From Pecten maximus (Eukaryota), in contig NC_047019.1 in NCBI RefSeq assembly GCF_902652985.1, positions 14,190,097 to 14,254,096 of the forward strand: a stretch of 64,000 nt of DNA, in the 5' to 3' direction. The position numbers and the translations under genes were made by a program. Each line of letters begins with the position of its first letter. The stretch's first letter is position 1. Below, piece by piece: positions 10,856-46,632 of the stretch. A model generated the notes under the pieces. The model worked only from the letters and a program-made list of their open reading frames with translations. It was not told where the DNA came from and did no database searches.

Positions 10856-10887
10856 GTAAACTGCATAAGCACATTTACACTGTGCTT

Positions 10888-17420: not shown

Positions 17421-17465
17421 GTTTGTATTAATTTTCATGTACCCCTCTTTGACATAGGTTTCATA

Positions 17466-17760
17466 ACAAAATATAGTTCATTAGTCCTCCACATAGAACT
17501 AAGATGACCAATATAGTTTACTGGTGACCAGTGGTCCTCCACGCGGAGCCGAGGAGACCTATTGGTCTACTGATCATCCTCATAGAACTAGGGGGATCTA
17601 TAATTTATTGTCCTCCACATGGAACCGAGGTGACCTATAATTTATTGGTCCTCCACATGAAACCAAGGTGACCTACAATTTATTGGTCCTCCACATGAAA
17701 CCAAGGTGACCTATAATTTATTGATCCTCCACATATAATTGAGGTAGCCTATAAATTTAA
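17466..17760. repeat. 40-bp tandem repeat, about 7 copies, in NB-ARC intron 6
   Basis: The unit is 'tggtcctccacatgaaaccaaggtgacctacaatttat'. Confidence 0.85.
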
Positions 17761-17798
17761 AAGCAATGAAATGAAATGTAAATTGGTCCTTTTCACAG

Positions 17799-17977
17799 GC
17801 CTAGGGTTCCCCCACCTTAAGGAAGCTATCCATTTCTACGATGAGGCTCTAACAAAGATAAAGAATGGAGGGTTATCCATAGACCATGAAGAATATGCTG
17901 AAATAAAGAAATTCCACTTGAAAGCTGTAAACAGAGTAGACACAAAAAGAAAACAGCACTTGGAACAGGAATACCAG
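17799..17977 (+). CDS. NB-ARC gene exon 7 (TPR-like)
   Basis: The acceptor is tttcacag|gc and the donor is ccag|gttagt. The exon encodes LGFPHLKEAIHFYDEALTKIKNGG...; the phase is consistent. Confidence 0.7.
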
Positions 17978-18327
17978 GTTAGTTGGAAACAGCTGTTCAG
18001 CAAGCTACGTTGATAAGGTACAAGATTGGTAAATACCGTGTTTGGCTAATGATAAACAAAGTTACATTGTACATTAAACTGTTTCAATCCTCTAAGATTC
18101 TTTCAAGAGATACTTGTAACAAAAATTATGGAAATCCTCAAGGGTGATAAGAAAGTTCATCCTTTAACACTTAACAAATGCTTTATAGAAGACAAAGTTA
18201 TTAACCCTTAACAAATGCTACTCATAGATGCAACCCAGATTAATGTTGAGGTAATGACGGATTGATGTGTCGAGTGTAATTTTAATTTATTACAAATTAA
18301 GGTACAAGTTTTATTTTCCACCAACAA

Positions 18328-18431
18328 ATTATTTAATTGAGGTTCTCCTTATTTACTTGTGGGACTTTGGAAGAGTGCATTATTTAATTGAGGTTCTCCT
18401 TATTTACTTGTGGGACTTTGGAAGAGTGCAT
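18328..18431. repeat. 52-bp tandem duplication immediately upstream of the exon 8 acceptor
   Basis: The unit 'attatttaattgaggttctccttatttacttgtgggactttggaagagtgc' occurs twice. Confidence 0.85.
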
Positions 18432-18459
18432 TGCATTAGAAATAACTGTTGTGTTACAG

Positions 18460-18940
18460 GATCTGGTATACAGAAGATCTAGTATCTTATTTGATAGAGA
18501 GGATAGTGGACATTCCTCGGATGGTGGTAGTGACGAGCAGGGTTCCAGTACCGATGATCTGATGAGTGACATACAGACAGACAGTTCACAGGACGAACAG
18601 ATCAAAACCTCTCGGGATGAGGGAACGTTAAAGGAGATGCCAGTAGATACTCAGAAGACTTTAGATGACACCATGAACTTCCTATCTCCAATGTCCAAGG
18701 GTAAAGGCAGATATGAACATCAAGATTCTGGATATGTTATGGGAGGCAGTACCAGTTCCTTTCGTAGTTCCACATCTCGTCGTTTGTCCAGACAAGAATC
18801 TTTTGAAGTTCTTGATCGACCAAGCATGACATCAAACACTTCGGGATCTTCAGAAGATGTTTTTCCTCCACCTAGTCCACTAGATTTGTCTATGAATGAA
18901 TTAATTGCAAAAGTTTCAAGAAAGTCTTCCAGAAGCAAAG
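18460..18940 (+). CDS. NB-ARC gene exon 8 (acidic, Ser-rich disordered tail)
   Basis: The acceptor is tgttacag|G and the donor is aaag|gtatct. The exon encodes DLVYRRSSILFDREDSGHSSDGGSDEQGSSTDDL.... Confidence 0.7.
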
Positions 18941-19221
18941 GTATCTAAATGATGTTAATAGTGAAAGGTGAAAAAATCCATTATGACATTTCTTTATAAG
19001 TTTTGAAGATCAAATATTACAACAGAAAACATCACTACAAATTACAGTTTGATCAACATCTATTTATATATTAAGTATCTAACATATCGAGAAATCCTGA
19101 TGGTTCTGATGAAACATCCCTATAGTAGAAACATGTGAACAACACTCTCCAATAAATTGGACCATTGAATGAATCTCCATATTTGCTCACCGTTTTTTTT
19201 ACATATATGACCTGATTTATT

Positions 19222-19882
19222 AGCTAACCTGGTCCGAAGGACCAAGGTGAGCTTATGCCATACCGTGGCGTCTGGCGTCTGGCGTCCGTCGTCCGTCGTC
19301 CATCCGTCTGTCAACAATTGACTTATTTGACTTCTTTTTCATAACCGCTGATCGGAATTTCACCAAATTTGGTCAGAAGCATCCCTATGGGTAGGGGACT
19401 CAAAATTGTACAAATGGTGGGGCTGACCCCCCCAGGTGCCTGAGGGGTGGGGCCAAATGTGGTCAATTGAGCTATATTGATATAACGACTTCTCTGAAAC
19501 CAAGCAATGGATACAGCTCATATTTGTCTGGTAGCACCTACTTGGGGTAGGAATTCAAAATTGTACAAATGGTGGGGCTGACCCCCTGGAGGGCTGAGGG
19601 GCGGGGCCAAACAGGGTCAATTTGGCTAAATTGTTATAAACAACTTCTCCTCTGAAACTAAGCAATGGATATTGCTCATATTCGCCTGGTAGCATCCCCT
19701 CGGTGTAGAGATTCAAAATTGTACAATTGGTGAGGCTGACCCCCTGGGGAATGTTCATGTACCCATATAAAATGCTTATGATATATTGACATAGCAATAC
19801 CAGTGACAAATATACTTAAACATAGTTCTTGTTTCATATCTCATGAATCCAGGTGAGCGATACAGGCCCTCTGGGCCTCTTG
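19222..19882 (-). mobile_element. Helentron-like element copy 2, in NB-ARC intron 8, ending 36 bp before the acceptor
   Basis: It has the same hairpin (agctaacctggtccgaaggaccaaggtgagct), a (gtcc)n tract, tandem subrepeats and the 'caggtgagcgatacaggccctctgggcctcttg' terminus. Confidence 0.65.
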
Positions 19883-19918
19883 TTGTTTTTGTGAGACCTC
19901 ATGTACTTATATTAACAG

Positions 19919-20220
19919 GGAGGAGTCGTTCTCAACAGAGCGATATACCTAACAGGGAAGAGAAACTTTCCAGAGGTCACAGTGACACGACAATTCTTCA
20001 AACCACAGGGAAAGCAGACTGCACTACATCTTTTGATCAAAGGCAGGCTTCGATAGAAGGTAAAGATGAACCTATCAAAGTCCCAGAGAAAGATGAAGGT
20101 CAAGGTGACATGGAGAGTCCTTCAGTACCTGTCAAAGTGACAGGGAAACGAAAGGGTATAGAGGACACAGAAAGTCCGGTGGTACCAGCCAAGTTGACAA
20201 AGGAGGATTTGGGTCATTAA
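19919..20220 (+). CDS. NB-ARC gene terminal exon (stop TAA at 20218-20220)
   Basis: The acceptor is attaacag|gg, 36 bp after a Helentron-like insertion. The phase closes the 3519-nt CDS at exactly 1173 codons including the stop. Confidence 0.7.
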
Positions 20221-20437
20221 GATGGATAATGTCCTGATAAAACAGCCAAGGTCAAAATGGAGGAAAGCTGTCATGGTAACAATGATACAGTAAATTGGGT
20301 TGGACCAGTCATGGTCACAAAGGCATAGAGATGAACCATTCAAAATCCTGTTTGAGTGGTCAAGGTCACAAAGGAGGATAGAGGTCAAGTGACTCAAAAT
20401 ACTGATTCCTGTTAAGAGTTTCAGGGAAGGGTAAAAA

Positions 20438-20452
20438 GGGGGGGGGGGGGGG
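20438..20452. repeat. Poly-G homopolymer (15 G) about 220 bp downstream of the NB-ARC stop
   Basis: Read directly. Confidence 0.9.
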
Positions 20453-22439
20453 ATCTTTAATTAACAAGTACTTTAGCCATTTTTACAAAACATGGCCAGG
20501 GTGACAGAAAATTCTTTGATGCCAATTGTTTAAGTTTATAAGCTGTATTTGATATGTCACCTATTTCAGTCATTTTAACAGTTATATAATTGAGGATTTA
20601 GAGTTACATAAAATGTACAGAATCCATTTTGAGCTTTATAGTATTACAGAAATTTCAAATTTTGAAGTATTGAAATGTGTAAACGTGTGTAATGTTTCAT
20701 TTAAAAGACCTAGTGTAGAAATTCTGTGCTGTAGCCATAGTATCTTTATAAATGTTAAGCTTGCTGTACAGTAGTGAGTTGACAAAAGAAGACAATTCAC
20801 GATTAATTTACATTTCCTGTGATTGATTTCACAGCCAGTATTGTAAATTAGATATTTGTTTTTAAATTTTTATTGAACATTTTTATGCACCTCAAGGTAG
20901 AAAAAATCGGAGGCGAATGCCTTGATACAGAACATTCCGTATGTTGTTAGTGATATTTAGATGTTCAACTACCATGTTGATATCGCAGCACTCTGTTAAC
21001 TTTAAACATTTCATAGTTTCCACTTAAGTCACAATATGATTTAATTGTGCATTCAACAAGCATTTTAATTGTCTTAAAATGTATGTTATCGGCCAATAGC
21101 ATAAAAATGACATTGCCGTTTGTATCGTTAGTTTCGACTGGCTGCTGCAGCGTAATAATTTCTAACTGAAAATATTTCATCATTGAAAATAAATTCAATT
21201 ATAAGGATTAACTTGGATACATGTTTTATGTTATGTAGCTATAACATTTCCGTAACATAACAGTTAATTAATCCTAAAATGAATATGTGAATAAATAATG
21301 AATTCTTTATTTAGAATTACAAAACACGATAACATCCTTGTAAACAAACAAATGTTTTTTGTTAAAGTGTTGCTGGAAGAACAACCTTTGAAATATGTTA
21401 CTACTAGCAGATGTGAGTAAACGGCTGTCTTTTATTTTCTGTCACATATTTAATATGTAATGATACCTGCGGCACAATTTGCCCCAATCTGTTTACATCT
21501 ATCAAGTCTTTAAGACAATAATCCAGAATGCTTGAAAATGTGTGAGGGATCAAGAAGAATTTATTTTCCTGTATATATTTTCTTATTGCGATTTTGACTC
21601 TTTTAAAAAGAGCAAAACCGTTGTTTTACAATAAAAGCTGTTGTTTTGACTGTAAATCTTAAACTGTTCAGATTGATAAATAGTATGAGCATTCCTAAAG
21701 GAAGCCAGGATAATGTTATTCAACCTCATGATCAAAGAGATGAGGGGTTTTCTTTAGGAATCACATTCTTTGTTCATGAATAATTTTGTTTTTTTTTCTA
21801 TTGTTTTTGTTATCAAAAAAAAGAAATGGAAGAAAAATAAAACACTAGAAAATGCCTGGACATCTATAGTTACGGACACAAACGTCTCCTTTGACATCAC
21901 AATCATCAGATTCATAAAAAATGAACCATCATAAGCATTCAATAATTAAAGTTTCTTGTCAACAGAGATTCATATATTTTTAAAACATTTAATGTTAAAA
22001 TTTTACAGCACATTATTTTTATTTTTGAACTTTGGAGATTACAAGATGTATTTTTTTAATTCTCATGTTATTTTTAAACATTTTATCATGTTAATGCAAT
22101 ATAATAAAGTGCCATTGATTCTAACAGATTTTTATACAAAACTAATATAGTGTATTATGTAATGTTTTTGAATTAATTATGATTTTTAATGATGTATATT
22201 TACATATTGTTTTAAATTCATTTTGGAAATTAAATTTTCTGTCACATTCCAATCTATAATTTGCATGTCTTTGTAAATAATTATGAAGAGGTTGAAGTTT
22301 TTGTACAGAATACTTTTGGAGCATGTTTGATTTACAGACCATCACTAAATGAATTGAAATCATTTTCAATTTACGTCATAGAAACTGGTCGATCCAAAAT
22401 CATCTTTTCTTGACACAATTCCTTCCGATGCCTTTGTAG

Positions 22440-22870
22440 AAATGTAGTCTCTCTGACAGACATTAAGACATTATTAATGAGATACGCACAATGTTGTTAA
22501 TTTAATTGTTATTTATATGTACCAGTTTTGAATGCAGCTACAGATTATTTGATGAGATTTTGTGATTGTTTTTATTAATTAGACAATGCAGCTTCAGATT
22601 ATTTGATTACATGTAGATTTTGTGATTGTTTTTATTAATTAGGCGGACTTTTATTCTTAAATGTATTTGATTTGTACAAAACATTCTTTCATTATTGAAA
22701 ACCACAATATGTAGAAATGTAGACTCTTTGGGCACAGTAACACTTTATCACTAATTACATACACACAATGTTGTTAATTTAATTGTTATATACAAGTTTT
22801 GGATGCAGCTAAAGATTATTTAATGAGATTTTGTGATTGTTTTTATTAATTAGACAGTTGTACAAAGCTT
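22440..22870. repeat. About 3 copies of a 150-bp AT-rich intergenic repeat
   Basis: The block 'aatgtag(t/a)ctct...caatgttgttaatttaattgtta...gattttgtgattgtttttattaattagaca' recurs. Confidence 0.7.
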
Positions 22871-23519
22871 TCATTATGGAAGTGTGGGAAAATTTGTCTT
22901 TTTGTATTGTAATAAAGAAAATAATAGTTGTTGACTTATAAGGAGAAGGGGCGCTTAATTTAGAATGCAGATTGATTCACGTTTGAAAATATTTGACTTC
23001 TGAAAGGGCTCATAAGTTACTGTAAAAACCTGTGTAGCACATTTGTTTGTTTGTTGTTGTTTTTTTGTACTGAAATAAAAGTTAAAGTTGGGTGTGTGCA
23101 AATTATACAGGTAGAAATGCTTTCAATTTTGTTTTTACAGAAAAAAAAAAGAAAAAAAAAGAGCTTTTCTTTTTATGGTTAATTTGAATTAAGTAAACAA
23201 GATGCAATTTCCTTTAAAACTATTACAAACACATAATGATAAAATCATTTTAACCATCAAGTATTTTGTAGAATAATTTAAAGCAAAGATTTGTGATAAT
23301 CTGTCTTAGTTCCATTTCAATACATCGATAGTGCCATTTTCATACATTGATTTTGGGACCTCCTGGACATCGTTTTTCGTTAAATTTTTTCATGCGCAAA
23401 GTACACAGATAGAAGGTTTTCTGCAGCATTTTCAGCCCCATAAAGTACCTGCGCAAATCACAGGTTTTTACAGTAACAGTAAAGTGGATTGAATTAGAAG
23501 GACTCATGAGTTAGAAGGT

Positions 23520-23700
23520 AGACTGGACTCGTAATTGGAAGGAAAGTAGACTTTCTGGAGTTAGAAGGAAAGTAGACTTTCTGGTGTTAGAAGGAAAGTA
23601 GACTTTCTGGTGTTAGAAGGAAAGTAGACTTTCTGGTGTTAGAAGGAAAGTAGACTTTCTGGTGTCAGAAGGAAAGTAGACTTTCTGGTGTTAGAAGTGG
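23520..23700. repeat. 26-bp tandem repeat, 6 copies
   Basis: The unit is 'agaaggaaagtagactttctggtgtt'. Confidence 0.9.
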
Positions 23701-28560: not shown

Positions 28561-29261
28561 AATAGATATAAAATCATTTGTTAGGATGAAGGTATTTTGC
28601 CCAAATTTGTTGAGTGATTTGCCACGGTTACTGAAATATTTTCCAGATGAGCGATGCAAGTCCTCTGAATGTTTCGTGAAATAAATGTTTTGTGTTCTTT
28701 CGTTAACTTAAAATATACCACAGTAAGATTTTTAATGCATAAAGATGCACTGTATTTAAAATTCATCCGATTCATATAGAAATTGTCCAGCTTACCGTCA
28801 AGACTCCTTTAGACAAAGCTCTTGTCGGAGTCAGTCACCAGATAAAATAGATACCGACACTAACAATTTCTCATGTCCCTGTGAAAATGAACACCGACAA
28901 AAACAATTTCTAGGTTCCCTGTGATAATGAACTCAGACATTAACTATTTCTCATGCCCCTGTAGCTATTACAGCAGCTACTTTCCGAGTACATTTCGCGA
29001 ATTCAATTCTTTTTGTTCTCTTTTGACTGATCTATTGTAGATATTAAAAAGCTTGCGCAATTCCAAACCCAACATTTTAAAGAGTCATGAAAAGTTCTAC
29101 GGTACAGCAAAAAGACTACACGCGATGGTAGTCGAGGTATACCTATAATATACATGTATCTGCAATTCACACGGGAGTTGTATGTAGGTAATTCACAGTT
29201 CAGAAAGGGAAATTAATCGAAACCGGAATAAAATATGACGCTATTTTTAAATAGAATAATA

Positions 29262-29467
29262 TGGCGTAAGAATGGAACATGCAGACAGTGGAGTTTCCTA
29301 CGTCATAATTGGACTAACCAAGGTATGACGTCACAAACACAAACACGTCACGAAGTGTCGGCGCTTAGCGATGATTTGTCACCGATAACTTTAGGACGTC
29401 GGATGCTTGATGTGGAGGCGTTGCACATTTAGCGATGTTTATCAACGTGGAACACGGAGGTAAGCTT
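29262..29467 (+). promoter_or_regulatory. CRE-rich promoter-like module, copy 1: tgacgtca at 29326-29333 and a splice donor gag|gtaagc at 29460
   Basis: It has the motifs 'tttcctacgtcata', 'tgacgtcac', 'ttaggacgtc' and ends '...gtggaacacggag|gtaagc'. It is one of three diverged copies. Confidence 0.45.
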
Positions 29468-29934
29468 ACATAATATTTTATTGACTGTAAGTGTAGACAG
29501 GGAGGATTATCAGGGAACAAGAGATTGGAAAATGAGAGAGAATTGAGAATACCTGGGAAATGAGGAAATGGGAACAGGGGCTATACTGACTACATTACTC
29601 GTTCCCCCTTTATCAGAAAAAATATGTCCAGATATTTCCCGAATTACTTAGAAACCATTATAATTTGTAGCTACGAAATAAATACATGTATTCTTCGTTG
29701 TTGTTCCGTTGCTAAGCCTACTTTGCTCTGTGGTACGTAACAAGAGGTCCAGAGGCCTACATCGCTCGCCTGGATAATTCACTAACCATGGAAAATACTT
29801 GTCAAATATTTACCTACTTTTTAAGCTGCCTCTCTAACTAAATGTGGACCAAATCCTGCCAGTTTTAAAGAATTTGCTGTATTTCCGCTATTAGAACCCA
29901 ACCCTCCGGCTCATGATTATACAAAATTATATCT

Positions 29935-30595
29935 CAATTGTCCAATAATATTCCAGACAAAATTCCATCAAAACCCATTCAGTCGTACATGACTAATAGC
30001 AGTTTAAACGTTTTACCTCGATTTCCCATATTGGGCCTTTGCTCAGCATTGCCCAATAAATACCCCAGACAAAATTTCATTAAATCCATTCGGTCGTTCA
30101 AGACAATAAGGATTTTAAACTCTATTTACCTTTTTTTTCCAATATTGAGCCCCGACCCTCTGGTCCTTGAGGTGTCACATCCTCCTTTTATACAACATTG
30201 GCACCCTTTTGCCAAATAATACTCAAGACGAAATTCCATCAAATTCCATTCAGCCGCACAGGGCTAGTAGCGGTTTAAGCGTTTTCCCTCTATTTTTCCT
30301 ATCGGGTCTTAACACTCTAAGGTGCCACACTCTCCATTTATACTGTATCGTTTTCGCCCAACAATGCCCTAAATCCACCCAGTCGTTCAAGACAAGTAAA
30401 CGATTAAGCTATATTTTCACAATTCGATCCCATTACTCAGGCCCCAACAGAGCCAAGCCCTCCGTTTATACATTGGATCTCCACTGCTCAATAATACTTC
30501 AAATATACAATATTGCGCAGTATAATGGTCCATACCAAATCATCAATATCCATTCAGTCGTTCTGGATTAGTAGCGATTCTAAGGAAATGTTGAT
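29935..30595. repeat. Tandem repeat of about 120 bp, about 5 diverged copies
   Basis: The block 'aataatactcaagacgaaattccatcaaa(t/a)(t/c)ccattcag(t/c)cg...ttt(a/c)cct...tt(g/t)ggc' recurs. Confidence 0.75.
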
Positions 30596-31109
30596 GAACG
30601 ATATACGCTGCTCCAAGGCATAAGTTCGCCGTCTTTTACCAGATGAGCTAAAAACGAATATTGACATCATTTTGAGGTTTCGTGTTTTTGGTTTTTGCGT
30701 CAGTGTTTTTCGTTATTTCGTCTCTTGCTGCGTAAAGGCGACGATTGACGGGGAAGTAAAAACGATAATCATCGATTGTTCAATAATAATACGATGATAT
30801 TATCATAATAAAACGGTACATATCAAATACGATAGGGAACCAAAAATGGTAGGTAACTTTCTGAGTCGTGTCGCCATACCATTTACATTAGCCGTGTAGA
30901 GTTATAAATCTGTGGTCGAATACCATTAGATATTGTAACTGTACGGTGTCATTCACACCTAGGGATAGTTTGTCTGTAACATATTTAACCAGTGACAAGA
31001 CGGTTGGGTACAAGTTATTATATAGCTATACATATTAAGCCAGGGAAACGAAACTATTCGGATCCAGAAAACGAAACAGGATTAAAAAGTGGCGCCATTG
31101 TATGGTGGC

Positions 31110-31290
31110 TGATTTCGGTCATGTCTCATTGGCGACAGTGCGCCATGGGAAAAAAACGACGGTGCGCCATGCGAAAAGCGAGTGCGCCATGTGAAGAGCG
31201 GAAGTGCGCCATGCGAAGAGTGATAGTGCGCTATGAGAAGAGCGACAGTGCGCCATGCGAAGAGTGACAGTGTCCATATAAAGAGCGACA
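31110..31290. repeat. 15- to 17-bp tandem repeat (agtgcgccatgcgaaga), about 10 copies, directly upstream of module copy 2
   Basis: Read directly. Confidence 0.85.
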
Positions 31291-31317
31291 ATGCGCCCTG
31301 ACGTGGGAATGAATCAT

Positions 31318-31506
31318 ATAGACAGTCGAGTTTCCTACGTCATACGGCTAGTTGAACTAACCAAGTTTTGACGTCACATACGACTCACTAGTGTCTGCAC
31401 TTAGCTAAGATTTATCACTGAGAACTTTAGGACGTCAGAAGCTATAAAAGGAGACTGCATATTTATTGAGTAATGCTTGTTAATGTGGAACACGGAGGAA
31501 AGCGTA
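31318..31506 (+). promoter_or_regulatory. CRE-rich promoter-like module, copy 2: TATA-like gctataaaagg at 31441-31451; the donor is lost
   Basis: It is homologous to 29262-29467 and 32657-32856 and contains 'tgacgtcac' and 'ttaggacgtcag'. Confidence 0.45.
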
Positions 31507-32656
31507 CATAGTATTTCACCGACAAGGCCGTAATAGTGGACGTTTAACCCATTAATTATAATAATAATCCATCGACTTTAGGTCAGATAGGAGGGTCAAG
31601 GAACAAGGGGTCGAGGTGGTAAGAACTGGGTACTAAGGAGTTGGGACCCAGTGACTATAGTGGGTGAGCTAATTCATCGACTGTGTTCATGTTTTTCGTG
31701 GCAGCGAAAAGGCGATGTTTGGCAGTGCGGAAAGACGACAACATATCCTTACAGTGTGTATGTAAGTGTTAATATGTCGTTACGAAATAACGACAATCGT
31801 CGATCAACGTAGCCATACTGGGCTTGGAACGAAGATTATTACTTTGCTCTAGATCTGCGGCACGTCATGATAAACGTAAGGTGATATTAAATGACTGGGT
31901 CGCTAAACATCGACTGCTTTGGATTATTCACGCAACTGTTTTTCTTTGCTGCGAAGACGACAATTTCCTGTGGTTCAGCAATAAAGCAACGGTATATGAC
32001 GTATTTGACTGCACATGACGTGTAAATCTCTTTTTGGGTGCCACAATAACATTATGAAGTAGTCCCGAATCGCGTTGCTATTCCATTCATAACTATGATG
32101 CTGGGTTCGGTACTACATTTCACAGCATCCATTGGTCATTAAACGTTATATTAACAATGTTAAGACCATCTCTTTAAGGGACATGCCTTCGTTTGAATAA
32201 AGTTTATGTCGCCAAAATGAAACTTAATAGGAAATGTGTATTTCCCCCCAAGTAGTAAAAATTAATAACCTTTATATTAATACGAAAGTTTTACTCTCAA
32301 GGGAAACAAAAGTGCTTAAAGTTTTAAATAATAAAAATTCTCAATTCGACTCGAAGTATTACTAATTACCTCAAAGACAGACGGTATTTGTGTACGGAAC
32401 GTCATTTTTCTGTACATTTCGGCGTTAATTTCATTACTGGTAGGCATACAAACTCGTATAATCCTTATTCGGGAATAGATTATATCAATAGAAATGTTGC
32501 ACGTTTCTGATGTCCGAACGAAGGAATGCCCCTTTAAATAACCACATCAATCACCTCGAACATCCAAACAGGAAAGCGAAAATGATAACCATTTAATTCA
32601 TGGAAAAGAATAAGAATAAAAAAGAATAGGATGTCAAATAAAATGAATCGACGGAG

Positions 32657-32856
32657 AAATAGTGTACATTCTGAGAGTCAAGTTTGTTACGTCATAAGTG
32701 AACTAGCCAAGGGTTGACGTCACAGACACATTACGTCACTAAGTGTCCGTGCTTAGCGATGCTTCACTATTAAGAACTTTAGGACGTCAGAGGCTGCAAG
32801 TGAAGAATTTACACATTTAACGATGTTTATCAACGTGGAACACGGAGGTAGGCTTA
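32657..32856 (+). promoter_or_regulatory. CRE-rich promoter-like module, copy 3, with the donor gag|gtaggc at 32848. It lies 1.1 kb upstream of the small-protein gene.
   Basis: It is homologous to copies 1 and 2 and contains 'gttgacgtcac' and 'ttaggacgtcag'. Confidence 0.45.
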
Positions 32857-33964
32857 CATAGGATAGGGGGAAGAAGACTCGATACCCGGAAATTATTTAA
32901 GGGGTCGGAAACTACATTGTTTGTATAGGGAAAACGGTTATAGAACTAGGGTGTAGCGAGAAGACTCAGAATTAATGACCCACCACTGTCCATCCCTCTT
33001 TATTGGTAAATATGTATATCCAAAGAATCCTTGAATTTTTTCAGATGAAATAGCAACGAAATTACCTTTCGGAACCGTTTGCTATTGGGGTCAAATGGAT
33101 AAGTCGATGTCACTTACTATAACTCAAGTTCTCTTGGGTTAAACAAGCACAAACTTCACATGGTGCTTTCAATCGACAATCGGCTTGCTCGGGATAGCTT
33201 CTTGATGTGAAATATGACAAAGGTAAAGGTCACTGTTACTATAGAAAAACTTTCCGCTCAATAATTTGAGTTCCCTTGAACCGATCCGTCCGTCAGGGTC
33301 ACCATCTTTAGTTCATATGATCTAAAGGTAACTGTTGCTATAAAGTGAAACTCTAAGTGCTTTCCCACCAACACGACTTGCTTCGAATTGCTTCTTGATT
33401 TAAAAGGTCACGGTCACTATGACTATACAAAAAAAATCGTTTCCGTGTATCTAGAATATTTTTACTGCCTAAAGGATGTTTTGAATCATCGTTTTGAGAT
33501 GTAGGCAACATATCATGCATTTTTTATGATTATGGTACCATGTTGTCGGTGATTTCATTTGATAACTACGGAAAGCCAGACTATGTAGAAATATCCGAAA
33601 TACTTGACCACTTAAAATTGTCCTCCTGGCTGTGACTACTGAGAGACGAAAAGATATTCGTCAGACAATGTTTTATAATATTGTCCACAACAAAGTCACT
33701 GTCGTAAAACTGACAGACTAACCCCTCCTGTCAAACACTCCAAACCAGCTTTCCTTCCAAATATGTGGCGTGGGAAGGATGTCATAATAACCAGAGACCT
33801 ATATAGTATATAGGTCTCTGTAATAACTTATTTTTTGTCTATGCAAAACTATTTTTCCATAGGCAATATTCTTATAAACAACTTTCGCAAATAGGGACTA
33901 TTTTATGCAGCGGATCCAAAGAAATCTATATTTCCAAGCGTAGTGAATCATGCTCTTGAAAAAA

Positions 33965-34081
33965 ATGGCAGCCGGTCGCGACCGTTTGTCCAGACTGCTA
34001 ATTAGGTTGGTCAACACTGATTGTGGCGACCAGGACTACCTGGATTCGTCGTTACTTCGTCTGGACAATCTGGCCATTAAG
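33965..34081 (+). CDS. Small basic protein gene, exon 1 (ATG at 33965; an alternative in-frame ATG lies at 33950)
   Basis: aaaATGg is a Kozak-like context. The exon encodes MAAGRDRLSRLLIRLVNTDCGDQDYLDSSLLRLDNLAIK. The donor is aag|gtagga (phase 0). An acceptor-like 'tatatttccaag' lies at about 33940, just upstream. Confidence 0.5.
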
Positions 34082-34731
34082 GTAGGAGGAATGAGTCATC
34101 GCTATAGCGAGTCCAGTAGACTCGTCTTAGACTGAACTTACTAGCAGGGGAAAGTAATCTTGGTAACGTTGGATCAGGCGACGTTGACGTCATTTCGTCA
34201 TCCATTTTCCCGCTGAAACTTCGATCGCGTAGGAATATTTACAAAGTTGTAAGGTTATTTTTGATTGGCTAATAGATTGATCAGAATTCTAATATTGTCT
34301 GTGCAAAAATAGAATTAAATTTTGCACAGGCAAAAATAATTTTTCATATGCAAAAATATTTAATTATGACACACTATTTTTAAGCTTCCCGCGCCAAACA
34401 AGTACGTCATTCTAAAACTCGGGTTAGAGCATGTAACTGAATGGAAGGTCACATCACAGATTCATTCAAATGTTGGCATGCATCTACTGTACATGTAGCA
34501 CCAGTATTCATTAATAAATATCAAAAAGAAAATAACTACTTTTCCCATCCAACTCCTCTCTGGCAATTCCCCTGCAAATGGTTGGCCAGTACCATAATTC
34601 GATTTCGCCGGCATCCATCTTTGGTGACCGTAGTAAATATTACGGTCACCACTGTGTACACACTGATTATTGTAAAAGTACATGAATTAGAATTATATGT
34701 GTTGCATTATAAATCTGTTTCAGATGGTAAG

Positions 34732-34810
34732 ACACTGTTGGTGAACCCCGACTGTAATGCTGTAATTCTACAGGATTACGTGAGGAGGTCGTGTGGTATC
34801 AAGTCTACAG
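34732..34810 (+). CDS. Small basic protein gene, exon 2 (the acceptor is uncertain: 34732 is phase-consistent; 34724 after tttcag is not)
   Basis: The donor is tacag|gtaggt at 34811. The exon encodes TLLVNPDCNAVILQDYVRRSCGIKST, which repeats the LVN-x-DC...DY motif of exon 1. A total CDS of 642 nt (3x214) holds only with the 34732 start. Confidence 0.45.
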
Positions 34811-34875
34811 GTAGGTCTCTATAATGGCTTTATAACGTCAAACTGAGCAACGAATTAATAGTCGGTATAAATAAA

Positions 34876-37800
34876 CAAGAGGCCCATGGGCCTTAACGGT
34901 CATCTGACAAACACTTACACTTACAGCAGGGACACACCCCTCAATCCAGCATTATTACCATAAATTATTTATCGCAGCCAGTTATGTTTTAGATCAAATT
35001 TGGTTTTTATCCATTTAGCTTGTCCAGGAAGAGCAGCATCATAAAGCAAAATTTTAGCCAAGTTCCCATTTTTGGGGCATGCCCCTCTGTCCCAATAGGT
35101 CAGACAAGACTCATTTATATCAATTAGGATTGCCTTTCCCCAATGATGTTTCATACTAAATATAGTTGTAATCAATTAAGGCATTAAGGAGGAATTGCAT
35201 TTTAAAGAAATATTTAACCTAAGCGCTCCTTTTGCCCCATCTTTTTTTCCCCAGGGGTCAAACCTGTCTCATTAAAAAATATGATTGCCGTCACCTTATG
35301 TTTCACATCAAATTAGGTTGTAATCCACCAAAAGGTTAGGGAGGATTAGGATTTAACAGCAAATATTCACCAAAGTTCCCCTTTTGGGGCCCTGCCCCTC
35401 AGGCCCCAGGGGTCACACTAGCCTCGTTTATATAAAATATGACCACCCTTCCCAAAGGATGTTTCACACCATATTTCGTATTAATCCACCCAAGGGTTAG
35501 AGAGAAGTAGGATTTATAGCAAAAATTCACCAAAGTTCCCCTTTTGGGGCCCCGCCCCTCTGGCCCTAGGGGTCAAACCAGCCTCATTTATATAAAATAT
35601 GATTGTCCTCCTCCAATGATGTTTCACACCAAATTTGGTAATAATTCACTATGGGGGTTAGGAGGAGTAGTATTTTAAAGCAAAATTTCATCAAAGTTCC
35701 CCTTTTGGGGCCCTGGGCCCATATTCATAAAAAAACTTAAGTTAAGTATTTCACTTAAGAAAATACTTAAGTAGGACATTTGTACTTAAGTACTAAAATA
35801 AACTTAAGTATTTACTTAATTCAAGGTTTTATCTTAAGTTGTATTCATAAAACTACTTAAGCTTAAGTATTACTTAAGTTTTTACTTAAAGTTAAGTAAC
35901 GTCACGAGGATGTTTAACTTCCTTTAAAAATACTTAAGTAAATACTTAACAACTCAGGTGAAAGATGTCTTCACGAAATCGACAGAAATCAAATTGTTTT
36001 TAAGAAAAAAAATCATTAACTTCAGATTTTGTTGTATTCCATCATTTAAAACAAGATGTAAAGGTTTGAATCGAAGATGGAGGAGTCAATCTCACTGTCG
36101 TTAAGGCCCATTACGAAGTCAATACTACAACGACACGGAGCAATTGTAGTTTATAAGAAACATACCCATATACCAATCAAATTCTATTTAGATAAAACTT
36201 CATTTTTGTTTCTCTTGCTGACTTTGACAAAGCAGAAATACTGCCTCAAAGTTTTATTGTATCTTTTATTCATTAATCTAAAAAAATGTATATCTATAGA
36301 GTTCTTACCTGTGTATTAAAAAACATTGTGGTTACTTGTACTTTAACTTAAAACCCGTTCATGTGCATTCCAGCCCTGTCATGTAGTACTCCCCTGCTTT
36401 GATAACGAAACGAAAGTTTTAAATAACAGTTGATTGTTGTGACAGTTCTAGCATGCTTGGGGGTGGGATTTTACAGATCGTACAATGTAACTAGGGGTTT
36501 GATATGTACATTTCAACTGATGTTTGGTTTAGTGGAAATCAACTAAAACGTACTTGTTCTCCTTGACTCTACGATGAACACGATATGTGCATTTTTGGCC
36601 TGAACGACGAGGTTAGTCTAATTTTCGTGCATTCTTCCGACTCTCTCCTGATTAATACATTTGATCTGTTCAATCTGCCGGCAACCTGAACCCACGCTTG
36701 CCTATTTGCAGATGCCGACATTCCGTCCTTAAATCGTCCACGTATGACATGTTTACTTTCACTTGTAAACATGTACTAGCCTCACCATCGCCAGACATTC
36801 GTCCTTTGTCCAGTTTGGTCATCTCATCTTTTTTGCTGTTGCCATTTCCGGATTCTGATCGTCTTGGAATGCCAGGAACGCCGGTGCCAAATTTCACGTT
36901 TTACGAAAAACATCACGCAGCTACTTAACAACAACATAGCAACTACATGAAATACTTAAATGTTTATACTTAGCTAAGTATGTACTAAGTAAATACTTAA
37001 GTCGTTTATGAATAGTACTTAAGTTCAAACTTGAGTTTTATTTAACTAAGTAAAATATTTATAGTTAAGTATAACTTAAGTCAAACTTAAGTATTTAACT
37101 TAAGATTTTTTATGAATATGGGCCCTGCCCTTCTGGCCCCAGGGGCCACACCAGCCTAATTTATATAAAATATGACCACCTTCCCCCAATGATGTTTCAC
37201 ACCATATCTTGTTGAAATCCACCAAAGGGTTAAGGAGGAGTAGGATTTTATAGCAAAATTTCATCAAAGTTCCCCTTTTGGGGCCCTGCCCCTCTGGCCC
37301 CAGGGGCCACACCAGCCTCATTTATATAAAATATGACCACCCTCCCCCAATGATGTTTCACACAATATCTGGTTGAAATCCACCAAAGGGTTAAGGACGA
37401 GTAGGATTTTATAGCAAAATTTCATCAAAGTTCCCTTTTTTTGGCCCGTCACTCTGGCCCCAGGGCTCACACCAGCCTCATTTATATAAAATATGACCAC
37501 CCTCCCCCAATGATGTTTCACACCAAATTTAGTTGTAATCCACCAAAGGGTAAAGGAGGAGTAGGATTTTATAGCAAATATCCACCAAAGTTCCCTATTT
37601 AGGGCCCGCGAGGCCCCTCTGGCCCTAGGGGTCAGACCAGCCTCGTTTATATAAAACATGATTGTCCTCCTCCAACGATGTTCCACACCAAATTTTGTAA
37701 TAATCTACTTTTGGGTTTTGGAGGAGTAGTATTTTAAAGCAAAATTTCATCAAAGTTGCCCTTTTGGGGCCCCGCATCTCTGGCCCCAGGGGTCACACTA

Positions 37801-38477
37801 GCCTCATTTATATAAAATATGACCACCCTCCCCAAATGATTTTTCACAACATATCTGGTTGAAATCTACTAAAGGGTTAAGGAGGAGTAGGATTTTATAG
37901 CAAAATTTCATAAAAGTTCCCCTTTTGGGGCCCCACCCCTCAGGCCCCAGGGGTCACACTAGCCTCATTTATATAAAATATGACCACCCTCCCCAAATGA
38001 TTTTTCACAACATATCTGGTTGAAATCTACTAAAGGGTTAAGGAGGAGTAGGATTTTATAGCAAAATTTCATAAAAGTTCCCCTTTTGGGGCCCCGCCCC
38101 TCAGGCCCCAGGGGTCACACCAACTTCATTTATATAAAATATGACCGCCCTCCCCCAATGATGTTTCACACCAAATTTAGTTGTAATCCACCCAAGGGTA
38201 AAGGAGGAGTAGGATTTTATAGCAATATTCACCTAAGTTCCCTTTTCGGCGCCCCGCCCTTCTGGCCCCAGGGGTCAGACCAGCCTCATTTATATAAAAT
38301 ATGATTGCCCTCCCCCAATGATGCTTCAAACCAAATTTGGAAGTAATCCACCCAAGCGTTAATGAGGAGTAGCGTTTTGAAAGAAAAAGTTTACGGACGG
38401 CGCACGGCGGACGGCGGACGACGACGGACGAAGCACGATGACTATAGGTCATCCTGACCCTTTGGGTCAGATGACCT
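34876..38477 (+). mobile_element. Helentron-like element carrying a satellite array of about 160 bp (about 20 monomers) and a nested 1.4-kb TIR transposon. It sits in intron 2 of the small-protein gene.
   Basis: The 5' terminus is 'caagaggcccatgggcc'. The 3' end has (ggac)n at 38398-38431 and the hairpin 'aggtcatcctgaccctttgggtcagatgacct' ending at 38477. A 160-bp unit 'ccccttttggggccccgcccctctggccccaggggtcacac...' occupies 34990-38400. The element is inserted between A|A (T|T on the other strand). Confidence 0.65.
35715..37125. mobile_element. Nested non-autonomous DNA transposon with perfect 20-bp TIRs (gggcccatattcataaaaaa / ttttttatgaatatgggccc)
   Basis: It interrupts one 160-bp satellite monomer, and the flanks reconstitute the monomer with a 3- to 5-bp duplication (ctg/ccctg). 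The interior is rich in the 'acttaagt' palindrome. It has no recognisable transposase ORF. Confidence 0.65.
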
Positions 38478-39125: not shown

Positions 39126-39245
39126 TGACAATCGACTTTAGTGATGAAAATGCTGTTCTGACGGAGCTGTTCAGTAAACCCCCACAGGAGAACATGTTTG
39201 ATTTCTTCATGCCACGCAGCACATTTGTACTGGTACAGATTGACC
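39126..39245 (+). CDS. Small basic protein gene, exon 3
   Basis: The acceptor is gttggtacag|tg and the donor is gacc|gtaagt. The exon encodes VTIDFSDENAVLTELFSKPPQENMFDFFMPRSTFVLVQID. Confidence 0.65.
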
Positions 39246-39904: not shown

Positions 39905-39979
39905 GAGGAGCAGATGGCAGCATCTTAAAAGTGACTCCCCTACTTACAGACTGGGAGAAGAAGTACCCTTTCCTGGAGA
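39905..39979 (+). CDS. Small basic protein gene, exon 4
   Basis: The acceptor is tattactacag|ga and the donor is ggaga|gtaagt. The exon encodes RGADGSILKVTPLLTDWEKKYPFLE. Confidence 0.65.
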
Positions 39980-40648: not shown

Positions 40649-41624
40649 CAAGAGGCCCAGAGGGCCTGTATTGCTCACCTGGATTTCATGAGATATGAAA
40701 CAAGAATGATGATTAATTATAAGTATATTTGTCACTGGTATTGCTATGTCAATATATCATAGGCATTTTATATGGGTACGTGAGGATTTTATGTCAAAAA
40801 ATGCATTAATCCATGAAATAAAATTAACTTTTGGCACAACCCCATAGGGATGCTACCACACAAATGTGAGTGATATCCATTGCTTAGTTTCAGAAAAGAA
40901 GTTGTTTAAACCAATTGACCCCTTTTGAACCCGCCCTCTGCACCCCTGGGGGAGTGGGGGTCAGTTCCTTCCTTTATAAAATTTTGAATCCCTACCCAAA
41001 AGGATGCTACCAGGCAAATATGAGCGATATCCTTTGCTTAGTTTCAGAAAAGAAGTTGTTCATATCAATTCAGCCAAATTGACCCCTCTTGGCCCCGCCC
41101 CTCAGGCCCCCGGGGGGGTCAGCCTCACCATTTGTACAATTTTGAATGCCCACCCAATAGTGATGCTACCAGGCAAATATGAGCGATAGCCATTGCTTGG
41201 TTTCAGAGAAGAAGTCGTTTATATCAATATAGCCAGATAGACCACATTTGGCCCCGCCCCTCAGGCCCCTGGGGGGTCAGCCCCATCATTTGTACAATTT
41301 TGAATCCCCAACCCATAGCGATGCTACCAGGCAAATATGAGTGATAGCCATTACTTGGTTTCAGAGAAGAAGTCGTTTATATCAATAGCGCAAAAATGAC
41401 CCCTTTTGGCCCCGCCCCAGAGGCCCCCAGGGGGTCAGCCCCATCATTTGTACAATTTTGAGTCCCCTACCCATAGGGATGCTTCTGACCAAATTTGGTC
41501 AAATTCTGATGTGTGGTTATGAAGACGTCAATTGTTGACGGACAGACGGACGACAGACGACGGACGGACGACAGACGCAACAGTATGGCATAAGCTCACC
41601 TTGGTTCTTCGGACCAGGTGAGCT
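40649..41624 (+). mobile_element. Helentron-like element copy 3, in intron 4 of the small-protein gene, ending 26 bp before the acceptor
   Basis: The 5' end is 'caagaggcccagagggcctgtattgctcacctgg'. It has 4 to 5 tandem units of about 150 bp, a (gacg/ggac)n tract, and the 3' hairpin 'agctcaccttggttcttcggaccaggtgagct'. The flanks are A|A. Confidence 0.7.
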
Positions 41625-41650: not shown

Positions 41651-41764
41651 GGAAGCTGAGACAAAGAGACAAAAAAGCCAAACAAAATCTTGCAGCAGAG
41701 AAAGATGTCAAAGAAAAGGGGCGTCCGGGTAGTAAAATGTCTGTTAAGAGTGATTCTCCAACCT
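41651..41764 (+). CDS. Small basic protein gene, exon 5 (Lys/Arg-rich)
   Basis: The acceptor is ttttacag|gg, 26 bp after a Helentron-like insertion. The donor is acct|gtaagt. The exon encodes RKLRQRDKKAKQNLAAEKDVKEKGRPGSKMSVKSDSPT. Confidence 0.65.
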
Positions 41765-42250: not shown

Positions 42251-42387
42251 CAACTCCAAGCAAAGTTAATGTCAAGAACGGGAAGAATTCAGCTAAGGGA
42301 GATAACCGCACATTGAGTATAGCACCGGATGAAACTGCCCCTCCCAAAAAAACCAGCAGCAAGGGCAGGAAAAAGCATGCACATTGA
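42251..42387 (+). CDS. Small basic protein gene, terminal exon (stop TGA at 42385-42387)
   Basis: The acceptor is cctcaacag|ca. The exon encodes STPSKVNVKNGKNSAKGDNRTLSIAPDETAPPKKTSSKGRKKHAH*. Confidence 0.65.
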
Positions 42388-43651: not shown

Positions 43652-44104
43652 CTACAGAAAGACAACAACACAAAATAATCTTAACTTCATTATAACATTA
43701 CTCGTACAATATCCATTTATACATTCTTAAATTCTGCATATTAGTTTTGGTGTAGACTTGAAACTAAGAAGTATTTGTGTTTTGAATACTTGCATCATGT
43801 TTTGTCTTATTTAAAAGCAAAATGAAAACACATATTCTACTTAGAGTGGAAATGACCTTGGGCAATAACCCTCAGACACCTTCATCACAATTCCCTGTGT
43901 TGTGGCACAATAAGATGTTATCAAAGATGATAACACAAATTCCATTGTCATCAGACAGACATTGGGCAAAACACATGGTCTTGGTGGTAGGGTTATACTA
44001 TCATGGATAATATATAGATTTTTGGATGGATACTGAAATACATTGCCATTAGCTTAATGAGAATTGTTCATGGAATATCATATTTTGTAATCATTTTACT
44101 GTAC

Positions 44105-44928
44105 CTGATGTGTTCAAATTGCAGAAGAACTCCCTCCAAACTGGCGACATCTCTCCTTCCTCATGACTGGCTATGTAACGCATCAGTTCATTCATCTTCA
44201 CCAACACCTCATTTAAACATGGTCTTACAGACTCTTTTGTACAAGAATCACAGTCTACATAAAGCTTGTCACTACTAGTGTTATACAGTACATTATAGAT
44301 CTGAAGGAGACACCTCACAAACTCCTTCTTTTCTGTGTCCCTGAAATGCTTGGCCAGAGATCCTGCACTAAAATGCTGGTGTATCCAAGACACAATGCCA
44401 ACCAATGTCTCGTTGCTCACATATGGAAGACTAGTTACTAAGAAGGAAATTGCTGCCATGGCAACAGTACATACGACTTGAACACCATCATTACCTGTGT
44501 CACATGACACAAGTAGACTTGGTTTCCAATGCAACAGCAAACCAACACTTAAAGGACAAATTTTTGTATTGGTGTCATTTTCTTCTGATCCTTTGTCTGT
44601 CTTTTCTGTCATGTCTTCATTTTCTTTTTGGATAATGGCCTTTCCATCCTTTGTCAGTTTCACCTCTTGTCTAGATGCCCCCTTGCTTCCTGATTGTTTT
44701 CCCTTTACATTCAAGAGTTTTAAGGCCCCAGTACAAGTTGTTTCTACGTTTTTGTCCTTGACGATTCTCGCCGAGTTGACTAGGATACCACAGACATCCT
44801 GTGTGGTTAGAGGTGTAACAGTCACCTGTCCCTTGTCCTTGAGAAGCACTACAGATTCCTTCAGGTGATTTAGCACAGACACCAGTGTCTCCAAACATTT
44901 CTCGTATACCGTGTGGATTGTTTCTTCC
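44105..44928 (-). CDS. Large gene exon. If the donor catcag|gtacag at 44104 is skipped, read-through ends at an in-frame TGA (44091-44093).
   Basis: The acceptor is ttttattttcccag|G. An 824-nt ORF encodes EETIHTVYEKCLETLVSVLNHLKES...CNLNTS. Confidence 0.7.
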
Positions 44929-45318
44929 CTGGGAAAATAAAACAGTTTTTATCAGCAAAGTCTGTTGGTAATATCAATATGAAAAAACATCTGTAACAAA
45001 TAGAAACATTTTTTGTAACATTATCTTTGATAATTTATATGCTTTTTACATAAGTGATATCCATCACATTTATGACAAAATAGTATACTTCCAATAAACT
45101 GATGCCAGTTTCACAAATATTCCTGACTTAAGGAAATTCCTGAATTAAAATTATATTTTTTTTTTCATAGGAAAACATTATAAGTTCAGAATTCAAGAAA
45201 AGCTCCTCAACTAAGATTTTCCCTTTAATCCCACAATGCAAAACTAGGGCCTGGTATTTTATGCAGTGAAACCCCACTAACTCCCGTTCTATAGATAACC
45301 CGGCTTCCCAAAACTTAC

Positions 45319-45510
45319 CCACAACACCTGACAAGCGACAGAAGACAAGTCAGCACCTCCCTGGATATGGCCAGTGGCAAGCATTTCGTTTCCTGCCCTT
45401 CTTCGTCTATTTCAGAGTTGTTTCCCCTGATGGATCGGTGTCGTACCATTGAAAACCACAGATTGTGGAGTATATCAGACAGTATTTCAAGCTTGCCAGC
45501 ACCAATGTTT
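45319..45510 (-). CDS. Large gene exon
   Basis: The acceptor is taatttcag|a and the donor is gtgg|gtaagt. The exon encodes NIGAGKLEILSDILHNLWFSMVRHRSIRGNNSEIDEEGQETKCLPLAISREVLTCLLSLVRCC. Confidence 0.7.
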
Positions 45511-45715
45511 CTGAAATTATATAACAAATATTCTTAAAATTATATGAGAGTTTTGAATACTTAGTATTTATAGTACAGTTGAACCATTTTTTGTTTTTAC
45601 ATTTTGATATCAGGAAATATTTTCATTTATATTCTTAACATCTTAATTCTTTAGTTTAGATTTAGAATTATTAACATTTTTCCAAAAGATTAAGTATAAT
45701 ACCTGGTTATGACAC

Positions 45716-45888
45716 CTGTTAACCAACTCAATATCCCATGTTGCTTCACTAGGTAAAAAGTCACTGTTCTTTGTCCAGAGGCTGACTTCAATATGTCCAA
45801 TACCTGCAGCTGTAACACCATAAATTGGGCAAAATGTTCTATAAATAGTCCTTACATACCAAGAGTTAAAATCATTGGGTTTATATGT
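45716..45888 (-). CDS. Large gene exon (boundaries tentative)
   Basis: The ORF is open in frame (TYKPNDFNSWYVRTIYRTFCPIYGVTAAGIGHIEVSLWTKNSDFLPSEATWDIELVN). A weak acceptor gttaag|ACA and the donor aacag|gtgtca were chosen because they keep phase with the neighbours. The stronger donor cag|gtatta at 45703 breaks phase. Confidence 0.35.
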
Positions 45889-46197
45889 CTTAACACTTTC
45901 CCTTTCTTTTTGCAAATATCAAAAATTAAAGTGTGTATTTCAAAATCTTTTAAGAATTGCTTTTTTTCAAATTTTGCGTTCGGTATACATATTAAAAGTT
46001 TCATTTTTCTTCCACATGTTTTTCTGTTATATCAAAATTCAGTTTTGATGAAATGGGATTTAAGTGACATATATCTGATGATTTGTAATAAAGCTAAATC
46101 AAATATATTTCAATTAGAAAATTTTAATCTTGAATCTTACATATTTCAGTTAATATAGTTAAGTATGAAATGTAAGTTTACAACCGTGTACACTGAC

Positions 46198-46341
46198 CTG
46201 AGAAGAGTTGTCACTAATACCAGAATCGTGGAAGCTGAGTAAGAGTTTGAAGACATAACGAGCCTCAAACAACTTGTAGTCCAGTGTCTCTCTCAAACCA
46301 TCTTTACATAAATCTAAAATCCATGATCTTTCCACCTTAAA
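46198..46341 (-). CDS. Large gene exon
   Basis: The acceptor is ctgttacag|T and the donor is tctcag|gtcagt. The exon is 144 nt and phase 0, and encodes FKVERSWILDLCKDGLRETLDYKLFEARYVFKLLLSFHDSGISDNSSQ. Confidence 0.7.
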
Positions 46342-46632
46342 CTGTAACAGAAACACCAGTCATGTGAACTTTAAAACAGTTCTGACAAACACTGATAATT
46401 TTTAAGTTTGTTTTACTAATACGACAAAAAGATCATATTGTATTGCATAATTATGAAGGTATATGTAAGTTATGAAATATGCAAATACATGTAATCTGTC
46501 CTGCTATGTACTTATTCATTTTTTCTGAAAGTATATCCTTGCACATTCTCCCTCAGAAATTTTTCTGGCCAAATACTTATTCACATGCATTATTCATGAG
46601 TCATTGAAAATATTCTGAGCTGGCTACAATAC

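Follow-up and report, generated by a model that had tools for sequence, protein, structure and literature searches.

Tandem paralogues of a CRE-containing promoter and first coding exon, probably two intact copies and one relic, at the CXorf65 homologue of the scallop Pecten maximus

The window analysed here is a stretch of 64,000 nt of the Pecten maximus genome (RefSeq assembly GCF_902652985.1, contig NC_047019.1, positions 14,190,097 to 14,254,096, forward strand) and contains three related modules of ca. 215-225 bp each, which lie collinearly on the plus strand upstream of the body of a gene encoding a CXorf65 homologue. These modules, numbered from 5' to 3', are very probably tandem paralogues of the proximal promoter and short first coding exon of this gene, which has six coding exons, with copies 1 and 3 providing alternative first exons and copy 2 being a relic. 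The original prediction, made from the letters of the window, had described an array of alternative promoters with noncoding leader exons spliced to a common body; the promoter-proximal and paralogous nature of the first exons stands, but the exons are coding because the 3' end of the module encodes MFINVEHG, the annotated N-terminus of the protein.

Candidate exons located downstream of the array were assembled and a database of 5.8 billion proteins was searched with the product. The best match, 100% identical to the window exons, was the 185-aa "uncharacterized protein CXorf65 homolog [Pecten maximus]" (hereafter P0001), which matches the Pfam family PF15874 with 64.4 bits (gathering cutoff 27; expect value, E, 1.2e-17), and orthologous proteins were found in Argopecten irradians (P0002) and Ylistrum balloti (P0003). 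A repeat homologue search with full-length P0001 returned only the same three proteins and thus provided no further scallop loci for comparison. The N-terminus of the three proteins reads MFINVE[H/Y]GDGK, with P0001 beginning by MFINVEHGDGK, and tblastn placed MFINVEHG at 29435 and 32823 and MLVNVEHG at 31473. At the 3' end of the module, eight codons are followed by a single G and the gt of a 5' splice site (see Table 1), so that MFINVEHG is encoded together with the first base of the Asp codon 9.

When exon 1 of either copy 1 or copy 3 is joined to exons 2-6, the resulting 558-nt coding sequence (CDS) has canonical AG/GT at every junction and translates exactly to P0001. In both copies the ATG, the open frame and the phase of the 5' splice site fit the common exon 2, whereas copy 2 fails on account of a GT to GA change at the donor and of two substitutions, F2L and I3V. 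Intron 1 extends from 29460 to 34723 (5264 nt) when counted from copy 1, with copies 2 and 3 inside, and measures 1876 nt from copy 3. An acceptor had been proposed at ca. 33940, while the true common acceptor, tttcag/AT, was located at 34723/34724, in front of an exon 2 that is conserved in the Argopecten and Ylistrum loci. RefSeq carries the same 185-aa sequence under consecutive accessions, XP_033740039.1 and XP_033740040.1, as isoform X1 and isoform X2, which in our reading hints at two CDS structures differing only in which of the identical-coding exons 1 is used. A longer isoform (MFINVEHGVHELELYVLHYKSVSDGK...), which would use the in-frame acceptor aaaag/TA at 34678/34679 and gain 15 residues (VHELELYVLHYKSVS, 34679-34723), was considered and rejected, the corresponding 200-aa protein being absent from the protein collection.

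The existence of three plus-strand copies of ca. 200 bp close to the positions originally given was borne out by a repeat finder run on 27-36 kb (families D3, D5, D7, D12 and D16), by alignment, by blastn and by nhmmer. The profile used with nhmmer (option --max) was built from the three Pecten copies and two orthologues (see below) and matched the window at 29263-29481 (E 7e-66), 31300-31518 (E 8e-53) and 32650-32866 (E 1e-64); neither this profile nor motif searches allowing 3 mismatches detected a fourth copy on either strand of the 64 kb. Mean column identity in the three-way alignment is 80%, pairwise blastn alignments of 202-234 columns are 72-78% identical (E 5e-27 to 2e-45), and four sub-motifs of the module each occur exactly three times in the window, against 0-0.2 expected from shuffled sequences.

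The motifs quoted in the original prediction were also recovered. The sequence TTTCCTACGTCA is found in copies 1 and 2, its counterpart in copy 3 being TTTGTTACGTCA, while TTAGGACGTCAG occurs in copies 2 and 3 and corresponds in copy 1 to a sequence ending in GTCGG. A perfect cyclic AMP response element (CRE), TGACGTCA, is present in all three copies (29326-29333, 31369-31376 and 32715-32722). Further downstream, GTGGAACACGGAG is followed by GTAAGC, GAAAGC and GTAGGC in copies 1, 2 and 3, respectively, which confirms that copies 1 and 3 end at a genuine 5' splice site and that copy 2, the only one to carry the TATA-like GCTATAAAAGG, has lost its donor GT. The weak similarity described for the spacers was recovered in part: it does not extend beyond the ca. 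100-200 nt that follow the modules downstream (z of 5.4 between copies 1 and 2 and of 2.9 between copies 1 and 3), and neither blastn (word size 7) nor local alignments compared with shuffles revealed any similarity from 400 nt downstream onward or upstream of the modules. Since only this short downstream tail is left, the tandem unit of ca. 2 kb that had been proposed is no longer demonstrable.

Comparison with the orthologous loci of Argopecten irradians (L001, gene 10001-23620) and Ylistrum balloti (L002, gene 10001-17365) showed that in each of them the ATG of exon 1, at 10001, lies directly downstream of a single module (nhmmer E 2e-52 and 4e-49, respectively; also recovered by blastn). 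No second copy was found in these genes, in their introns or in the covered intergenic DNA, which extends ca. 9.8 kb and ca. 6.2 kb upstream of the ATG, respectively. Within the window and 61 kb of orthologous loci, the 5' end of this gene is thus the only place where the module occurs, and in the 5' region of the gene the module and exon 2 are the only parts still alignable between genera. In the five-way alignment of the three Pecten copies with the two orthologues, TTACGTCA and the CCAA...GACGTCA boxes are invariant, and most of the third ACGTCAC box as well as the coding and donor block are also conserved, with the exception of copy 2 in which the box is deleted and the GT lost. Copies 1 and 3 share their 25-nt CDS, without any difference, with exon 1 of Argopecten; TGACGTCA is also found in Argopecten, its counterpart in Ylistrum being CGACGTCA. 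The downstream neighbour, a minus-strand gene of the Npa1/URB1 type, is syntenic in both loci (open reading frame, ORF, 44091-44894 on the minus strand of the window, 62-66% identity, E 1e-105). On the upstream side, tblastx and tblastn gave no matches, so that synteny is confirmed for the downstream neighbour only; the gene upstream of the Ylistrum orthologue encodes an NB-ARC/TPR protein for which no sequence match to the window was found.

The Pecten modules share 66-80% identity with one another and 49-68% with their orthologues, copy 2 being the most diverged of the three (distance of 0.30-0.32 to copies 1 and 3). Between copies 1 and 3 the overall divergence is ca. 20%, with the CDS and donor identical at 37/38 positions, the promoter part at 77% and the spacer before the ATG at 69%. 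According to our calculation, the probability of finding at most one difference in 38 positions would be ca. 6e-4 at 23% divergence if these were unconstrained. In copy 2, 31-32/38 positions of the CDS and donor match the other copies, which corresponds to 6-7 differences including the loss of GT, and the age of this copy is similar to or greater than that of copies 1 and 3. The GT to GA change, the two amino-acid changes and the lost box together designate copy 2 as a decaying relic. In a neighbour-joining tree, the Pecten copies group together (74% bootstrap); because one copy occurs in each of the two outgroup genera, two duplications in the Pecten lineage represent the simplest history, and the triplication would most simply be specific to that lineage. 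The duplications are sufficiently old that their neutral flanks can no longer be aligned.

In invertebrates, CpG depletion reflects germline methylation. In the window, the region from 29 to 35 kb that encloses the three modules, their spacers and exon 2 is the only extended block in which CpG is not depleted (see Table 1), the remainder having observed/expected ratios of 0.0-0.7, except for one 1-kb bin at 0.93 (36-37 kb), and the big satellites being almost without CpG. Domains of ca. 3-4 kb with non-depleted CpG are likewise centred on the single module of the Argopecten and Ylistrum loci. Judging from these ratios, the three copies are likely to share one germline-hypomethylated promoter domain. 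The conserved upstream block of each unit, ca. 175 bp in length, contains the CRE TGACGTCA and two or three further boxes with an ACGTC core; TGACGTCA and several ACGTCA half-sites lie within ca. 110-140 bp of the start codon and are conserved in the three genera and in all paralogues. No TATA box is conserved across copies and orthologues, and the TATA-like motif was rejected as a promoter element, as it occurs only in the dead copy 2 and is absent from the other Pecten copies and from the orthologues.

Taken as a whole, these features are best explained by two duplications of the unit in the Pecten lineage, either segmental and in tandem or through unequal crossing-over; the neutral flanks would since have become unrecognisable or given way to repeats, while the functional block would have persisted. 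Copies 1 and 3 would then act as alternative promoters and first exons, either of which would provide exon 2, common to both, with an identical set of eight codons and a donor. In transcripts starting from copy 1, copies 2 and 3 would lie inside the ca. 5.3-kb intron 1 and, being first exons devoid of a 3' splice site, would be removed with it. As the same protein is obtained from copy 1 or copy 3, the consequence would be regulatory only (dosage, or tissue or stimulus specificity), and a regulatory difference might arise through the diverged sequence around the conserved CRE boxes. The copy 2 relic may still bind factors. Metagenome contigs, in which spliced transcripts were sought with the exon 1 sequence, gave 0 matches.

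Three points weigh against this interpretation. With the bootstrap value of 74% obtained for the Pecten copies and two outgroup genera, an older duplication followed by losses may have occurred; the near-identity of the exon and donor in copies 1 and 3 could represent a short gene-conversion tract instead of purifying selection on both; and a function of the CREs is suggested by motif identity and conservation only. The second point is shared by an alternative that appears unlikely and yet deserves serious consideration, in which only one copy works as promoter and first exon, copy 3 (proximal) being the most likely candidate, or failing that copy 1 (distal), whose upstream context is still the ancestral one. 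The remaining intact copy would then either stay silent or serve only as a CRE-containing enhancer or shadow element, its ATG, ORF and donor having been preserved by gene conversion or by too little time for decay. Copy 2 proves that copies can die, and the tract that is near-identical in copies 1 and 3 covers 49 nt around the exon with flanks that are far more diverged, as seen in conversion. However, a divergence of ca. 20% would have hit an unconstrained tract of 38 nt several times, as calculated above, all copies are located within the CpG-non-depleted domain, and the two RefSeq accessions carry an identical protein under different isoform names. Sharp similarity boundaries, unalignable flanks and repeat-rich surroundings would also fit a mobile or dispersed repeat (a solo long terminal repeat, a short interspersed element, a miniature inverted-repeat transposable element, MITE, or the end of some element) that was inserted three times upstream of the gene by chance. 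This is extremely improbable, as only three copies occur in 64 kb, all in the orientation of the gene, weak collinear similarity extends 100-200 nt into the intron, the modules have no Rfam or tRNA-like content and no inverted-repeat pair brackets any of them. Moreover, two other scallop genera have one orthologous copy each, joined to the ATG of this very gene, and the blocks that are invariant among the five sequences are the footprint of a promoter, which rules out an origin as dispersed repeat; the single orthologous copies likewise leave without support the terminal repeat of an element and the family of long noncoding RNA (lncRNA) promoters that had been put forward as other possibilities. 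Hardly any credence can be given to small-RNA or lncRNA genes (for instance spliced-leader-like genes made of a short exon and a GT) or to a noncoding promoter family, despite the tandem arrangement of a short conserved block that ends at a 5' splice site: the whole window has 0 matches in an Rfam scan at gathering thresholds and 0 with ARAGORN, conservation ends ca. 12 nt past the GT with no common element resembling an Sm site, and the exon encodes, in frame, the beginning of a conserved protein. In encoding the N-terminus of P0001, and in having neither an Rfam match nor a conserved Sm-binding part of the intron, the modules differ from spliced-leader RNA genes.

The remaining alternative is that of the original prediction, in which noncoding leaders are spliced to ca. 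33940 and the first coding exon starts with the ATG at 33965. Copies 1 and 3 do have consensus-like donors, an AG is present at 33939-33940 after a short pyrimidine-containing stretch, and the 56-codon ORF that starts at 33965 has a first part ending in AAG/gtagga. This scheme is nonetheless barely conceivable since the annotated start codon and N-terminus lie within the module exon. The ORF has no homologue among the 5.8 billion proteins searched with its peptide placed at the front of the query, is absent from P0001-P0003, matches no Pfam family and is not conserved in either orthologous locus beyond a chance-level match. Splicing 33941-34081 between exons 1 and 2 introduces premature in-frame stop codons, and the AAG/gtagga junction is in phase 0 when exon 2 needs phase 1. 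That the ORF might be a decayed copy of exon 2 (LVNTDC..QDY vs. LVNPDCNAVILQDY) was also considered and left as unproven, the resemblance being marginal: BLASTP gave E 0.012 in a single comparison, with shuffle p values of ca. 0.004 for protein and ca. 0.035 for nucleotides, whereas in a 7.7-kb search the match had an E of 0.14, no better than chance matches, and nucleotide local alignment missed it. A fourth perfect TGACGTCA, contained in GACGTTGACGTCATTTCGTCATCC, is found at 34185-34192 in intron 1, ca. 100 nt past this ORF; it lies outside the modules and is not recognised by the module profile.

Duplicated promoters and first exons of this kind have a close parallel in the Drosophila melanogaster gene hydra, in which nine exons 1 are arranged in tandem and have similar upstream regions, the CDS of each being nine codons long; at least 4 are used as start sites, as established by 5' RACE (rapid amplification of cDNA ends), one is probably dead, and the array arose from unequal crossing-over (Chen et al. 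2007, PMC1904467). As in hydra, the duplicated unit in Pecten consists of an upstream region and a coding exon 1 of only a few codons (8 and one additional nt, against 9), the copies splice, or in Pecten are predicted to splice, to a common exon 2, and some copies are probably non-functional. In both cases a lineage-specific duplication is involved, for which unequal crossing-over is held responsible, and the protein remains essentially unchanged so that only regulation or expression level can differ. Unlike the nine-copy array of hydra, that of Pecten has three copies, which are much more diverged (20-32%) and have no transposon consistently attached to them. The host gene is also of another kind, hydra being a de novo gene whereas that of Pecten is old and conserved, with a PF15874 domain and orthologues named after human CXorf65. 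Finally, use of the copies was demonstrated by 5' RACE in hydra and is a prediction from sequence in Pecten.

In the protocadherin and UGT1A clusters, the first exons are individually equipped with a promoter and carry a 5' splice site but lack a 3' splice site; a given first exon is spliced in cis to shared downstream exons, and first exons located further downstream are removed as part of the intron. The Pecten first exons would follow the same splicing architecture. However, the exons of these clusters are large, encode different domains and generate protein diversity, whereas the intact Pecten exons encode an identical 8-residue peptide, and the Pecten array comprises only three copies with no known mechanism of promoter choice. 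Tandem exon duplication is a recognised source of alternative exons (reviewed in PMC9013439 and PMC9741552). With mutually exclusive exons the Pecten array has in common the local tandem duplication of an exon together with a splice site, the copies being, in Pecten presumably, used singly; such exons are internal, with both splice sites and differing peptides, in contrast to the Pecten unit which is made of a first exon and its promoter and encodes identical peptides. The palindromic TGACGTCA and the ACGTCA half-sites near the start codon also resemble proximal promoters of the CREB/ATF/CREM type and may have a similar role; the Pecten modules differ from these in having no conserved TATA box.

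The structure is hence of a known kind, an ordinary lineage-specific structural variant, and the gene was already annotated in RefSeq. What the analysis adds is a corrected gene model, which places the start codon within the repeat and leaves the ATG at 33965 unused, and a clean invertebrate case of promoter and first-exon duplication that allows two intact copies to be compared directly with a relic. Comparison of paralogues and orthologues also provides the footprint of a CRE-containing promoter for the uncharacterised and widely conserved CXorf65/PF15874 family, which could guide the design of reporter constructs in bivalves.

Tandem repeats of another type were encountered at the same gene. 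A 22-bp minisatellite adjoins the 5' edge of copy 2 (see Table 1), and in Argopecten intron 1 contains a tandem array of ca. 7.5 kb (L001:11658-19124) with ca. 140 copies of a 53-bp unit (97% matches). This unit joins the last 17 nt of intron 1 (TCAATAATCTGTTGTAG) to the initial 36 nt of exon 2, and at its end the array passes directly into the real exon 2. Because each unit carries the exon 2 acceptor, the array offers ca. 140 identical decoy 3' splice sites, and, unless the last acceptor is used, splicing of Argopecten exon 1 would yield DGKNLLVNPDCNVNNLL and then a stop. With the minisatellite next to copy 2 and the 53-bp array of Argopecten, the 5' neighbourhood of the gene is evidently prone to tandem expansion. 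A more far-reaching proposal, which we regard as improbable, is that this 5' end acts in scallops as a hot spot where tandem amplification recurs independently, and that its products, extra CRE promoters in Pecten and decoy 3' splice sites holding back productive splicing in Argopecten, are selected regulatory devices and not neutral accidents.

Table 1. Coordinates of the module array, the CXorf65 homologue and adjoining features in the window (a slash marks an exon-intron boundary)
Feature	Position	Strand	Evidence or remark
CpG-non-depleted domain	29000-35000		CpG observed/expected 0.87-1.25
Module copy 1	29262-29473	+	nhmmer; joined to common exons gives exactly P0001
Copy 1, conserved promoter-like block	29262-29434	+	
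Copy 1, ACGTC-core boxes	29299-29305; 29326-29333; 29344-29351; 29393-29399		TACGTCA; CRE TGACGTCA; CACGTCAC; GGACGTC
Copy 1, first coding exon	29435-29459 (CDS)	+	ATG TTT ATC AAC GTG GAA CAC GGA G; donor GAG/gtaagc at 29460
22-bp minisatellite	31132-31297	+	GTGCGCCATGCGAAGAGCGACA, ca. 7.6 copies; last unit overlaps the first bases of module copy 2
Module copy 2, decayed	31299-31511	+	alignments; nhmmer; translation differs from P0001
Copy 2, boxes	31369-31376		perfect CRE retained; third ACGTCAC box deleted
Copy 2, TATA-like GCTATAAAAGG	ca. 31441-31451		ca. 22-32 nt upstream of the copy 2 ATG
Copy 2, former first exon	ATG at 31473		ATG CTT GTT AAT GTG GAA CAC GGA G (MLVNVEHG); lost donor GAG/gaaagc at 31498
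Module copy 3, nearest to gene body	32650-32861	+	nhmmer; joined to common exons gives exactly P0001; promoter-like block with CRE at 32715-32722
Copy 3, first coding exon	32823-32847 (CDS)	+	25 nt identical to copy 1; donor GAG/gtaggc at 32848
ORF, unconserved, 56 codons	33965-34132	+	within intron 1; no part of the gene
Common exon 2	34724-34810	+	true splice target of module donors; donor CAG/gtaggt; tblastn 100% over residues 9-37
Exon 3	39126-39245	+	tblastn 100% identity; joined CDS gives P0001
Exon 4	39905-39979	+	tblastn; joined CDS gives P0001
Exon 5	41651-41764	+	tblastn; joined CDS gives P0001
Exon 6, coding part	42251-42387	+	stop TGA at 42385-42387

The window as a whole is rich in satellites. 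Large arrays occupy 1-6304, 7502-8615, 49208-52166, 53021-53830 and 59290-63998 and are made, respectively, of an 18-bp unit in ca. 355 copies (50% GC, strong AT skew), a 45-bp unit in 25, a 40-bp unit in 74, a 46-bp unit in 18 and a 42-bp unit in 112 copies, the latter continuing past the end of the window; these arrays yield long spurious ORFs in several frames. A repeat of ca. 156-161 bp (GGGGCCCCGCCCCTCTGGCCCCAGGGGTCA...) forms short arrays in both orientations (14610-15115, 19400-19747, 35298-35715, 37120-38372 and 40956-41483), several of which lie within introns of the CXorf65 homologue; we presume that it is akin to the bivalve satellites of ca. 160 bp or to MITE-associated repeats.

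The neighbouring Npa1/URB1-type gene is large and extends on the minus strand over 44091-58459. On the other side, a plus-strand neighbour at 9299-20220 contains TPR repeats (ORF 15830-17431, TPR_12 with E 1e-6, below the gathering score). Finally, a 94-aa ORF on the minus strand at 27368-27652 matches no Pfam family and displays a Cys-rich ...EDEFHFILKCPSY... motif, and may represent the C-terminal tail of ORF2 of a non-LTR retrotransposon.

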